From assembly GCA_028865725.1 (NCBI GenBank), contig JAGWJP010000001.1, positions 294,568 to 358,567 of the forward strand: a stretch of DNA of 64,000 nt, written 5' to 3'. Position 1 is the first letter of the stretch; each line of letters begins with the position of its first letter. The notes beneath the pieces were generated by a model, which ran no database searches, was not told the DNA's origin, and was given only the letters and a program-made list of their open reading frames with translations. Of this stretch, positions 58,024 through 60,578 are shown one piece after another. The DNA is from Patescibacteria group bacterium (GTDB taxonomy: Bacteria; Patescibacteriota; Minisyncoccia; UBA6257; JACRHW01). The position numbers and the translations under genes were made by a program.

Positions 58024-58728
58024 ATGCAAGCAGTTATCTTAGCGGGAGGTGAGGGAAGGCGGTTAAGGCCGCTTACGAACGATATCCCCAAACCGATGGT
58101 GCATATTGCGGGAAAACCTATCCTTGAATACACAATTCGCGCGCTCCCCAAAGAGGTGAGTGAAGTGGTGTTGGTAGTAGGGTATAAGCGCGATGTGATT
58201 AAAACGCATTTTGGGACTATGTTTGACGGACGGCACATCGTCTATATCGAACAGGATGCGCCAAAAGGAACGGGGCATGCATTGAATCTTGTACATCCTG
58301 TCTTGCGTGGAAATGAATTTTTCCTGCTCTATGCCGATGATCTGTATGATCCCTACGATATCGCCCAATGTCTCAAGCAAACTCCATCACTTTTAGTGAA
58401 AGAAACTTCAAACCCAGAGCGATTTGGCGTATGTACTATTGACGGCGATAACCGACTTCTTGCGCTTTATGAAAAGGTTTCAAATCCGCCGAGCAATCTT
58501 GCGCTTATTGGCGTGCATGTGTTAAATCACGAAATCTTTGATATCGAGGAGGTTTATACGCCAAATGGAGAGAGTAATTTATCAGGACGTATTGGCGTAT
58601 GGGCAAAGACAAGGTCCATACATGTCGTAAAAGCTGGCTTTTGGCATCCGATTGGTTATCCGGAGGATGTTCAAGCCGCCGAACAGCTTGATCTCTCCAC
58701 CCATCCATGCAATAGTGCGAATAATTGA
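58024..58728 (+). CDS. sugar-phosphate nucleotidyltransferase (NTP_transferase family)
   Basis: 234 aa. MQAVILAGGEGRRLRPLT is the G-x-G-x-R-L signature. YADDLYD and a GlmU/RmlA-like fold. Confidence 0.7.
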   Translation: MQAVILAGGEGRRLRPLTNDIPKPMVHIAGKPILEYTIRALPKEVSEVVLVVGYKRDVIKTHFGTMFDGRHIVYIEQDAPKGTGHALNLVHPVLRGNEFFLLYADDLYDPYDIAQCLKQTPSLLVKETSNPERFGVCTIDGDNRLLALYEKVSNPPSNLALIGVHVLNHEIFDIEEVYTPNGESNLSGRIGVWAKTRSIHVVKAGFWHPIGYPEDVQAAEQLDLSTHPCNSANN

Positions 58729-58763
58729 TATTTCCCTATAACCACAGGCCCCGCCATCAAGGC

Positions 58764-58813
58764 TTGACAATATATGTTGATATGATATAATTGCATCATC
58801 AAAGAAAGGAGGG
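58764..58813 (+). promoter_or_regulatory. near-consensus sigma-70 promoter with extended -10 plus consensus Shine-Dalgarno
   Basis: TTGACA (58764-58769), 16-bp spacer, then TGATATAAT (TGn + TATAAT, 58783-58791). AAAGGAGG at about 58805-58812 lies 7 nt before the ATG at 58821. Confidence 0.5.
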
Positions 58814-58820
58814 TTTTCTT

Positions 58821-59084
58821 ATGAAACCCTGCGTCAAATGTGGCCACCCCGTCGGAAACGGCGGGGAGCGGCACAAGAAGGGGACGTGCCCGCCACCCCG
58901 GCCCGCCTACCTCTCCCCCGAGGGGAAGGCGGAGCGGCAGGATGCCGATCGCGCGCGTCGGCGCGCGAAGAATCGCGCTCGGCGGGCCGCGGCGGACGTT
59001 CCTGTCCGCGGGGCGCCCGTGAAGGGGACGTCTGGGAGCGGCGCGAAGAGCAAGCGCCGCGCCGCCGCGGGTCCGGGCACCTAG
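58821..59084 (+). CDS. GC-rich ORF encoding 87-aa Arg/Ala/Gly/Pro-rich basic protein with N-terminal C-x2-C...C segment
   Basis: The product is MKPCVKCGHPVGNGGERHKKGTCPPPRPAYLSPEGKAERQDADRARRRAKNRARRAAADVPVRGAPVKGTSGSGAKSKRRAAAGPGT. Its G+C and GC3 are far above every other gene in the window. This frame alone has RBS+ATG. Four other frames also stay open across the island, which is typical of high-GC DNA. Confidence 0.45.
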   Translation: MKPCVKCGHPVGNGGERHKKGTCPPPRPAYLSPEGKAERQDADRARRRAKNRARRAAADVPVRGAPVKGTSGSGAKSKRRAAAGPGT

Positions 59085-59100
59085 TAGGGCCTGGACCCAA

Positions 59101-59133
59101 AAAGCTGTGAGCATCGTCTCGCAGCTTTTTTTC
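59101..59133 (+). terminator. rho-independent terminator
   Basis: AAGCTG-T-GAG-CATCGT-CTC-G-CAGCTT followed by TTTTTTTC, immediately after the GC-rich ORF. Confidence 0.55.
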
Positions 59134-59174
59134 TTGTTCCTGAAGAATATGAACCTTGTATATTATTTTGTACC

Positions 59175-60578
59175 TTATGATCTGGCAGGGAAATCGAAAT
59201 TAATCGAAAAAAGAGTGTTGCCGACCGTGTAATACATCGTGTTGCCTGCACTGTACATACTATAGTTTATATTTGCGGCAAGTTTGGTAATGCCAAGCGG
59301 CATCCGGTTATCCGTATCTAAAAAATAGAGTGTGTGATTCACTGTGGTTCCAAAAAGATGGGCACTATCCTCATACCACGCGAAAGATGAAAATGTCGGT
59401 CCAAATAAGAGCGTGTCAATTTCTTGAGGGGTTTTTCGTAGTTCCTCGTCGGCCTCAATCCAATAAAGTGTAGGAATGCCTTGTTTAAGATAGGCTATTT
59501 TTTTCGAATCGGGAGAGAAGGAGGGAGAAGAAACGTCTGTATCGACAAGAGAAAGCGTAGTCGATGCGGAAGTACCAAGGTAGAGCTTGTCGTGTGTCGT
59601 ATCGTATGCCGCAACCGTGTTCTCATCAGGGCTCATAAGGAGCGTCCAATGCGTATGTGGAGATGAGGCAAGCGCATCAAACGGCGCAAAGGAGGTCGGT
59701 ACAGGATTTTTGGTAATAAGATTTTCAGAGTAGAGTCTTCCATTCGCATCAAAATAGTAAAGAGAAGAGCGAGTGACTGCAAGTGTCACAGGATCTGTTG
59801 AGGCAAGAAGAGTTGATATCTCGGCACGCGGATCAAACGCAAATATTCCTGATGAGGTGTGAATAATTAATTTAGGTTCGAACGGGTGCGGATATATGGC
59901 ATGGATGATGAGCGTGCTCGGCACATCAAATCCTTTAAGTGAGTGCTTAAATATGGTTTGTATGTTTGTGGCCCCTCGCGTATCAATGAGGAGCGGAGCG
60001 TTTTGCGTGGCGCTTTCATACCAAAACGAATTATTATCAGAGAGCCACGCAAATCCTGTTGCTGCATGTTCTTTTATAGAATAGAGAGCAGATTTATGTG
60101 CTAAGTCATAGGAAATGATAGTATGTTTTATTGTGTCCGCATAGGCGATGCGTGTCGCATCAGGGGAGAGTGAGAGTGAGGCGAGCGATGAAGAAGCGGT
60201 AAATATCCTAGTGGGAGTTAGAGGATCAGGAAGCAGCATTACTTCTTTAAAGGAGGTAACAAGATTAGGGAGCACAGTAAATTCTTTTTTCCATGATACG
60301 TAGTGATCTTTGGTAATATCGAGCGTGTAGGAACCCGGGGTAAGTCCTGATACAAAAAGTTCATTTGGTATTGCATAATGTTTGGTGAGGTGTTTTCCTT
60401 CAAGCGTAGCATTATAATTTTGAGTGTTTGTTTTTGCAAAAACACCTCCCACTTTTTCAAGCGTCATTGTTCCAAAATCAACTCGATACCCAATCACAAA
60501 AAGAATAAGTGATACGCCTCCCACGATAAAAAGAGCCACAAGGACCCAAAATAGCACTGAGCGTGTACGACGTGTCAT
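59175..60578 (-). CDS. membrane-anchored beta-propeller protein (PD40/TolB-like repeats)
   Basis: 467 aa with an N-terminal TM (VLFWVLVALFIVGGVSLILFVIG). Repeated SPD-x-x-x-IAY motifs (SPDATRIAY, SPDENTVAAY, SPDSKKIAYL) are typical of PD40 blades. Confidence 0.5.
   Translation of the reverse strand: MTRRTRSVLFWVLVALFIVGGVSLILFVIGYRVDFGTMTLEKVGGVFAKTNTQNYNATLEGKHLTKHYAIPNELFVSGLTPGSYTLDITKDHYVSWKKEFTVLPNLVTSFKEVMLLPDPLTPTRIFTASSSLASLSLSPDATRIAYADTIKHTIISYDLAHKSALYSIKEHAATGFAWLSDNNSFWYESATQNAPLLIDTRGATNIQTIFKHSLKGFDVPSTLIIHAIYPHPFEPKLIIHTSSGIFAFDPRAEISTLLASTDPVTLAVTRSSLYYFDANGRLYSENLITKNPVPTSFAPFDALASSPHTHWTLLMSPDENTVAAYDTTHDKLYLGTSASTTLSLVDTDVSSPSFSPDSKKIAYLKQGIPTLYWIEADEELRKTPQEIDTLLFGPTFSSFAWYEDSAHLFGTTVNHTLYFLDTDNRMPLGITKLAANINYSMYSAGNTMYYTVGNTLFSINFDFPARS

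Follow-up and report, generated by a model that had tools for sequence, protein, structure and literature searches.

A GC-rich gene for a small basic protein with a predicted zinc knuckle, from a family seen only in Patescibacteria

In a 64,000-nucleotide (nt) stretch of genomic DNA from a member of the Patescibacteria, or candidate phyla radiation (CPR) bacteria (GenBank assembly GCA_028865725.1, contig JAGWJP010000001.1, positions 294,568 to 358,567; hereafter, the window, with its first nucleotide counted as position 1), a sharply GC-rich block coincides with a gene on the plus strand that encodes an 87-amino acid (aa) basic protein with a predicted zinc knuckle. The protein belongs to a previously undescribed family that is seen only in Patescibacteria, and the odd composition of the gene is a long-maintained trait of this family rather than a mark of recent foreign origin. 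The interpretation that we favor, at a probability of roughly 60%, is that this is a native, strongly expressed gene, with a product that is probably a nucleic acid-binding protein and an mRNA that is kept GC-rich and structured.

A protein-coding gene within a GC-rich block

The GC content of the block (positions 58829-59100) is 75%, compared to 44.8% for the whole window; the peak 150-nt segment (58931-59080) reaches 78.7% (+5.96 standard deviations) and is unique in the 64 kb, where the second-highest peak is at 60% (+2.7 standard deviations). At the first, second, and third codon positions of the open reading frame (ORF), the GC content is 0.74, 0.68, and 0.84, respectively, against 0.54, 0.40, and 0.42 (standard deviation 0.04-0.05) in the 35 long ORFs of the window. 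The initial annotation of this DNA had described a GC-rich block with a third-position G/C bias (GC3) unlike that of the other genes, and both statements are upheld by these measurements; the window itself, which had been called uniformly AT-rich, is only moderately so, and just three reading frames (the called one included), rather than the five previously counted, are entirely free of stops over the coding sequence (CDS). ORFs of at least 57 aa overlap the CDS in all six frames. The GC-rich stretch extends about 15 nt past the stop codon because a 13-bp hairpin spans that codon.

Because the DNA is GC-rich, the length of an ORF is no proof of coding; it is the existence of homologs together with selection at the protein level that establishes the called frame as a genuine protein-coding gene. 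A single-sequence phmmer search against 1.84 billion representative proteins produced nine small proteins (72-105 aa) with E-values between 1.8e-9 and 6.6e-4 (1.8e-9 and 4.5e-9 for the two best matches), and a subsequent profile search produced 23 proteins, the few source-named ones of which come from metagenome-assembled genomes (MAGs) of the Parcubacteria group or Ca. Yanofskybacteria. A word-indexed protein search with the single sequence yielded no match, and the family was found by the full HMMER scan only. It comprises about 30 small proteins of 64-105 aa. Across 24 of the genes, the invariant Cys, His, Gly, and Arg residues are each encoded by 2 to 6 different synonymous codons, and the pairwise ratios of nonsynonymous to synonymous substitution (dN/dS) within the family are between 0.27 and 0.68.

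The 87-aa product contains 22 Lys and Arg residues versus 6 Asp and Glu residues (net charge of about +16) and, in agreement with the initial description of a basic protein with a C-x2-C...C start, begins with a C-x2-C...H...C knuckle. The N-terminal motif of the family is C-x2-3-C-G-H-x-V-G-G-G-G-[ND]-R-H-A-x-G-x-C-P-P, and it is followed by a basic linker, the sequence R-G-x-P-V-A-G-T-G-K-(P-S-A-S-S), and a Lys-rich tail. The window protein matches both signatures that define the family, namely, C-x2-3-C-G-[HF]-x-V-x-x-G-G-x-x-H-x4-C-P at the N-terminus and, after the basic linker, R-G-x-[PA]-[VI]-x-G in a protein of 64-105 aa. In the alignment, the columns of C4, C7, G8, H9, V11, G14, G15, H18, C23, and P24 are invariant or at least 90% conserved, and the invariant ligands suggest that the Cys2-His-Cys site binds zinc. 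AlphaFold2, run on the family alignment, predicts the N-terminal knuckle with confidence (predicted local distance difference test, pLDDT, of 86-87), along with a helix at residues 36-57, with the remainder disordered.

The range of the family was explored at the DNA level as well. An IUPAC pattern for the knuckle matched 9 contigs when scanned against one genome per species for 185,579 species; all 9 are MAG contigs, 8 of them bearing CPR names (Saccharibacteria, Kaiserbacteria, Paceibacterota, Niyogibacteria) and one labeled only "bacterium". The same pattern detected 19 further loci in a metagenome scan. All source-named homologs belong to Patescibacteria, the others being unlabeled MAGs or metagenome contigs, and none comes from a named high-GC lineage.

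Searches of Pfam, NCBIfam, PHROG, and PDB gave no family match, and a single member out of 26 touches Pfam Zn_ribbon_3, weakly (E = 0.003). Literature searches found nothing on the family or on this record. The family is undescribed; as a kind of gene, one for a small basic zinc-knuckle protein is ordinary.

The compositional excess is a family trait

We compared the GC content of the family gene with that of its host at 20 unique loci, each flanked by 1.5 kb or more of sequence. Host GC is in the range of 0.38-0.58 and gene GC in the range of 0.53-0.75, with the gene above its host in 20 of 20 cases; the difference averages +0.16, with a minimum of +0.06, and is +0.30 in the window and +0.32 at locus L015. 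The correlation between gene and host GC is weak (r = 0.37, slope 0.31). When each protein was simulated with the synonymous codon usage of its host, the expected GC and GC3 of the window gene were 0.61 and 0.43, respectively, whereas the observed values are 0.756 and 0.84 (z of about 8 for each; 7.9 for GC3). Given that the expected GC of 0.61 compares to 0.45 for the genome, amino acid composition accounts for about half of the excess. The rest is synonymous: GC3 exceeds expectation in all 13 family loci that were tested (z = 1.5-8.0). The shift is toward both G-ending and C-ending codons (GGG plus GGC, 10 of 12; AAG, 7 of 9; GAG, 3 of 3) and does not single out one tRNA-matched subset.

A further comparison is with locus L031, an orthologous site in another organism. 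In the window, the gene lies between a sugar nucleotidyltransferase gene on the plus strand and a gene for a 467-aa protein on the minus strand, a convergent pair that is syntenic in relatives. A first genome scan with the 467-aa neighbor as the query gave no match; in L031, however found, the small gene occupies the equivalent position, with its orientation unchanged, beside a homolog of the 467-aa protein (53% identical, E = 2e-71). The two small proteins are 51% identical and the two CDSs about 60% identical. The proportion of synonymous differences (pS) is 0.70, so that synonymous sites are saturated, and dN/dS is 0.27. Nevertheless, the L031 copy has a GC content of 66% and GC3 of 0.76, against 47% and 0.52 for its neighboring gene, and the promoter, the 5' untranslated region (UTR), and both 3' hairpins are retained along with the CDS. 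According to the initial annotation, orthologs with the same composition at the same locus in relatives would signify a native gene; such an ortholog is what L031 contains. The gene is an old resident, the composition of which has not drifted toward that of its host.

Gene organization and expression signals

The locus is organized as follows (window coordinates).

58024-58728, plus strand: upstream flank, sugar nucleotidyltransferase gene (PF00483, E = 5.7e-29)
58671-59114, minus strand: spurious antisense ORF of 147 aa, annotated by automatic callers in place of the real gene
58764-58791, plus strand: sigma-70-type promoter, with the -35 element TTGACA (58764-58769), a 16-nt spacer, the extended -10 TG (58783-58784), and the -10 element TATAAT (58786-58791)
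58804-58835, plus strand: 5' stem-loop with a core 8-bp stem (58810-58817 with 58823-58830; -11.7 kcal/mol, z = -2.4)
58805-58813, plus strand: Shine-Dalgarno site AAAGGAGG(G), also written AAAGGAGGG, 7-8 nt before the ATG
58821-59084, plus strand: CDS, stop included, for the 87-aa basic zinc-knuckle protein (MKPCVKCGHPVGNGGERHKKGTCPPP...RGAPVKGTSGSG...), supported by family membership, synonymous variation at invariant residues, and the dN/dS of 0.27
58830-58895, plus strand: predicted CCHC zinc knuckle, codons 4-25 (C4, C7, H18, C23), in invariant columns (AlphaFold2 pLDDT 86-87 over residues 1-20)
58926-58991, plus strand: predicted basic alpha-helix in the Arg/Ala/Lys-rich linker, codons 36-57 (AlphaFold2 helix 36-57, block pLDDT up to 87)
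59007-59030, plus strand: conserved C-terminal motif R-G-A-P-V-K-G-T, codons 63-70 (R63, G64, and G69 invariant; family consensus RG-x-PVAGTGK-PSASS)
59069-59098, plus strand: 13-bp stop-spanning hairpin, with UAG UAG in and beside the loop
59099-59135, plus strand: intrinsic terminator, with a 13-bp stem (59099-59130), the loop CAUCGU, and an overlapping T-run to 59135
59175-60578, minus strand: downstream convergent flank, gene for a 467-aa lineage-specific hypothetical protein, the synteny anchor

The CDS, the only copy of the family gene in the window, starts with the ATG at 58821 and ends with the TAG at 59082-59084, a second in-frame TAG following directly. The promoter, Shine-Dalgarno site, and terminator that had been proposed for this gene are all present: the promoter is the sole sigma-70 match at 12 of 12 positions within the 14 kb between 50000 and 64000, with an extended -10 in addition, and the terminator combines the 13-bp stem with a T-run. 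The transcript would be expected to start near 58797-58799. The exceptional strength of these signals, likewise part of the initial description, proved to be characteristic of the whole family: promoter matches at 10 or more of the 12 positions occur in 18 of 27 family upstream regions, often with TGnTATAAT, compared to 5.4% of control windows; a Shine-Dalgarno site of the GGAG/GAGG type precedes the start in every member; and an intrinsic terminator lies 3' of most. This anatomy, consistent across the family, is what would be expected of a self-contained, monocistronic, strongly driven unit.

Structure of the mRNA

The CDS of the window gene folds more stably than shuffled versions of itself, with z of -4.4 to -4.9 relative to dinucleotide shuffles and -4.5 to -4.8 relative to synonymous shuffles, in which synonymous codons are permuted among the positions of each amino acid; these values are among the most extreme in the family. 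The mean z for 24 family CDSs is -2.2 (dinucleotide) and -1.9 (synonymous). As controls, 40 ordinary segments of 264 nt were taken from CDSs of the window; their z averages +0.2 and +0.35, respectively, and falls below -1.7 in none of them.

At the 3' end, the stop-spanning hairpin of the window gene has a counterpart at the same position in L031 with a different sequence, and the L031 terminator is homologous, with changed stem bases and a similar loop; together, the two 3' structures have z = -5.9 in the window and -6.2 in L031. At the 5' end, the translation start region is A-rich and unstructured in most members (mean z = +0.2). In the window, the 5' stem-loop pairs the 3' part of the Shine-Dalgarno site and the G of the AUG, and this occluding hairpin is nearly identical in the window (58804-58835) and in L031 (52-88) even though the CDSs have diverged, which suggests a lineage-specific translational control element. 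As a feature of the family, it was rejected: the hairpin is confined to these two loci and is absent in the other 23 members.

Interpretation and alternative explanations

Taken together, these observations are best explained by a native, monocistronic patescibacterial gene that encodes an 87-residue basic protein consisting of an N-terminal Cys2-His-Cys knuckle, a basic helix, and an RG-x-PV-x-GT(G) tail. The near-consensus promoter, the strong ribosome-binding site, and the double 3' hairpin with the terminator would yield an abundant, stable transcript. The composition would have two sources, the Gly/Arg/Ala/Pro-rich protein sequence, responsible for about half of it, and a family-wide excess of G and C at synonymous sites that survives complete synonymous turnover alongside an unusually stable mRNA fold. 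Selection for transcript stability or for expression would maintain the GC-richness and the structure of the mRNA, and the product would be an abundant zinc-dependent nucleic acid binder, either nucleoid-associated or ribosome/RNA-associated. That the product might bind nucleic acids had been proposed initially; the proposal stands as a reasonable guess from the charge and the knuckle, not as an assigned function.

Several points weigh against this interpretation. With respect to mRNA structure, the Mann-Whitney p-values for the family compared to the controls (3e-8 and 9e-8 for the two shuffles) overstate the independence of the members, which are related to one another, and 4 or 5 members show no structure excess. 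No conserved internal fold was found: even where the codons of the conserved knuckle are concerned, the local structures vary from one member to another, and, because the internal hairpins are not positionally conserved, what is maintained would be a generic structuredness rather than a defined RNA fold. The structure excess could even be a by-product, not the cause, of the GC3 enrichment combined with the complementarity of Gly (GGN) with Pro (CCN) codons and of Arg (CGN) with Ala (GCN) codons. The putative high expression is read from consensus motifs. No homology to any characterized protein or fold was found, so that any function is guessed from the charge of the protein and its zinc-knuckle motif. 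Finally, the gene is missing from the same slot in three relatives (L007, L009, L011) and occurs in varied contexts elsewhere; hence some horizontal movement among CPR genomes is possible.

A stronger form of the favored interpretation is that of a CPR-specific, very abundant zinc-knuckle nucleic acid binder, a lineage-specific component of the nucleoid or the ribosome in these ultra-small cells, the mRNA of which is directly selected to be GC-rich and structured whatever the genome composition, in the manner of rRNA and tRNA genes; we consider this a tentative and rather unlikely extension. Such direct selection could stem from a second role of the transcript (for example, as a target that the protein binds to regulate itself, or as a functional RNA) or from a need for extreme mRNA stability.

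One alternative is that the functional product is a structured or dual-function RNA, in which the ORF plays a minor or accidental part. In AT-leaning genomes, an intergenic island that is GC-rich and has a promoter and terminator to itself is classically a structured RNA, and the fold z-scores are indeed asymmetric between the strands (-6.5 on the plus strand vs -4.0 on the minus strand for the whole transcript, and -4.4 vs -2.0 for the core). The fold excess throughout the family, which persists against synonymous shuffles, and the conservation of the 3' hairpin structure between orthologs could be read in the same way. However, Rfam has no match at gathering scores across the whole window, and, with relaxed filters on the locus (E up to 10), the best match scored 20 bits against a threshold of 58 bits (E = 0.78). 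The constraint at this gene is on the protein, as judged from the dN/dS of 0.27 and the synonymous codon diversity at invariant residues; internal hairpin positions differ from member to member; and the open, A-rich start region of most members is as in efficiently translated mRNAs. The purely non-coding version of this explanation is essentially excluded, and the dual-function version appears unlikely.

Another improbable explanation is a self-contained cassette that is mobile among CPR genomes, for example as cargo of an unrecognized mobile element or a CPR phage, inserts at terminator regions between convergent genes, and keeps its own composition. The slot is patchy, which fits this idea. 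The locus occurs both with and without the insert in relatives: the gene is present in the window and L031, and the slot is empty in L007, L009, and L011, where the flanking genes are only 0-19 bp apart (the 467-aa protein being 42-43% identical) and at least two of the three slots hold only a shared terminator hairpin. Furthermore, gene GC is nearly independent of host GC, and the contexts vary between genomes, some of the neighbors being mobile- or phage-like by sequence reading only. In contrast, synteny is stable over deep divergence (the window with L031; L018 with L020), and there is one copy of the gene per fetched locus as well as in the window. No match was found in the phage collection INPHARED or the plasmid collection PLSDB by blastn or tblastn, or in IMG/VR with the family alignment; with PHROGs also without a match, the original suggestion of a phage-derived product is unsupported. 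Hallmarks of mobility are missing too: there is no integrase or other associated recombinase, no terminal repeats, no target-site duplication, and no sign of a tRNA, although no scan aimed at tRNAs was made. The cassette is flanked by an inverted repeat of 20 nt with 80% complementarity (58718-58737 and 59187-59206); as a transposon end it was rejected, since its right arm falls within the part of the 467-aa gene that encodes the conserved ...FDFP... C-terminus, and it is probably due to chance.

A further occupant of the slot was observed in a Parcubacteria MAG (GCA_016217555.1; L005, 6447-6713, minus strand), where a gene for a different CxxC protein of 88 aa (MKCDKCKEEVHP...) fills the same intergenic space and has the same orientation. 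This gene has a GC content of 0.60 vs 0.41 for its host, a GC3 z of +7.6, the promoter-like sequence TTGACA...TGcTATACT, a Shine-Dalgarno site, and two hairpins 3' of the stop. Homology to the family could not be demonstrated (hhalign probability 0.2%; BLASTP E = 0.21), and the protein has no Pfam match; it could be either a very diverged ortholog or a replacement.

The origin envisaged in the initial annotation ("recently acquired", "a fragment of a gene from a high-GC donor") was a recent transfer, in which a gene of a high-GC donor, whole or in part, came to lie between AT-rich signals of the host type and has not yet ameliorated. The extreme composition relative to the host (+6 standard deviations in GC; GC3 of 0.84 vs 0.42), the order GC3 > GC1 > GC2, which is the pattern of genes from high-GC genomes, and the empty slots would all be accounted for in this way. 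The syntenic L031 ortholog, with saturated synonymous sites and GC3 still at 0.76, largely refutes it. Not only the CDS but also the promoter, 5' UTR, and terminator are shared by the two orthologs. Moreover, no homolog was found outside Patescibacteria among the 1.84 billion representative proteins and the genomes of 185,579 species; the GC excess is present in every member and host examined, so that repeated independent imports would be needed; and integrase, tRNA, or target-site-duplication signs are lacking, the sole inverted repeat lying partly in conserved coding sequence. A recent transfer is thus very improbable.

Finally, an assembly chimera or contaminant read-through, to which the abrupt compositional boundaries might point, is refuted by the 481 bp over both junctions being 100% identical in three independent assemblies (the NCBI MAG GCA_028868355.1, labeled "Patescibacteria group bacterium", and two separate Logan assemblies, SRR32006849 and SRR32006850) and by the orthologous locus in another organism.

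Relationship to known systems

The family resembles the zinc-binding small ribosomal proteins (bL31, bL32, bL33, bL36, zinc-type uS14, and the bL28 N-terminus) in its small size (40-100 aa in this group), strong basicity, Cys/His knuckle or ribbon, and probable strong expression. Unlike the genes for those proteins, however, the family gene is not part of a ribosomal operon, and close relatives lack it at the syntenic slot. The motif G-x-PV-x-G-x-x-R-x-H of the family looks, by eye, like the bL28 N-terminus, which is a lead only; the resemblance was tested and rejected, since hhalign of the family against a manually entered Escherichia coli bL28 sequence gave a probability of 0.07%. None of 26 members matched the Pfam or NCBIfam ribosomal models at E up to 1, and, among the PDB ribosome chains, a profile search aligned only the C-terminal RG-x-PVAGTGK-x-A with the tail of eukaryotic eS24 (NRGKKIFGTGKSIAKKAARR; 5it7_Y / 3j80_Y, residues ~100-133), an insignificant match (E = 8). 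The C-terminal motif reads RGRP in a few members (P0011, L041), RGAP or RGVA in most, and RGAP in the window; RGRP might hint at an AT-hook-like minor-groove DNA-binding motif (an R-G-R-P core, with GRP flanked by basic residues), which is a lead only.

Prokaryotic zinc-finger micro-proteins (Zn_ribbon/zinc-knuckle proteins and CPxCG-type archaeal ones) share with the family a single short C-x2-C...H/C...C site, a length below 100 aa, and unknown or nucleic acid-related roles. Unlike these, the family has the motif CGH-x-VGGGG[ND]RH-x4-CPP with a CCHC ligand set, and its basic helix and RG-x-PVAGTGK tail have no counterpart among them.

Like acquired genomic islets of atypical GC and GC3, the window gene is a sharp local anomaly of GC and codon usage in a slot that is empty in some relatives, but the anomaly is conserved in all hosts of the family and outlasts synonymous saturation, and no donor lineage or mobility signatures were found. 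The gene is therefore a counter-example to the rule that atypical GC or GC3 signifies horizontal transfer: that the anomaly is kept across hosts of 38-58% GC and past synonymous saturation suggests that synonymous sites are under selection, in connection with the structure of the mRNA. Such independence of gene GC and structure from the host is unusual.

The locus can also be compared with the GC-rich structured non-coding RNAs of AT-leaning genomes and the dual-function small RNAs SgrS/SgrT and RNAIII/hld. Like these, it is GC-rich, has a promoter and a terminator to itself, shows a strongly negative fold z, and includes a small ORF in a structured transcript; unlike in such RNAs, the main constraint is on coding, the internal RNA architecture is not conserved, and Rfam has no match. 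Few lineage-specific abundant proteins of CPR bacteria have been characterized, and this basic, putatively zinc-binding and strongly expressed protein could reasonably be considered as an accessory factor of the nucleoid or the ribosome.

Annotation status and additional observations on family loci

No gene is called at this locus in the NCBI record, whereas Logan calls the 147-aa antisense ORF (L002, L004), and an exact-product look-up found the 87-aa product called nowhere. The present analysis corrects this blind spot; small, compositionally atypical genes of the family are likely to be under-called in CPR MAGs, the composition probably causing gene callers to overlook this entire family of small proteins in CPR bacteria. 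Dual coding with the antisense strand was considered and rejected: the codon-aligned antisense frame is open in 21 of 25 family genes, which we attribute to the rare use of TTA, CTA, and TCA codons, and contains stops in 4. This annotation gap concerns positions 58671-59114 (minus strand) of the window and positions 10705-11152 of L001.

The contexts of the family genes provide no functional clue. Neighbors of phage or mobile type, as judged by reading the sequences, include a PD-(D/E)XK-type nuclease (L039), a phage-type dNMP-kinase-like protein (L051), and a DUF932-like protein (L046). In two unrelated contigs, L024 (4935-5489) and L033 (964-1509), the family gene has as its neighbor a gene for a hypothetical protein of about 180 aa (...EWD.xPSxLRM...GNxTKGI...LGGR...); these two proteins are homologous, and their genes lie upstream in one contig and downstream in the other. 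The family copy in L033 (297-758) is matched by the hidden Markov model in two reading frames, with the called ORF ending after 37 aa; it must be a pseudogene with a frameshift or else reflect an error in the assembly. At the Yanofskybacteria-type loci (L018, 4267-4521; L019, 4257-4613; L020, 1804-2007), the family gene is followed by another ORF, which is small, basic, and GC-rich and begins within the stop of the family gene (ATGA overlap); its product (MIKTINRREFRQKLG...; 84 aa in L018 and 67 aa in L020) has no Pfam match, and the pair may represent a two-gene operon variant.

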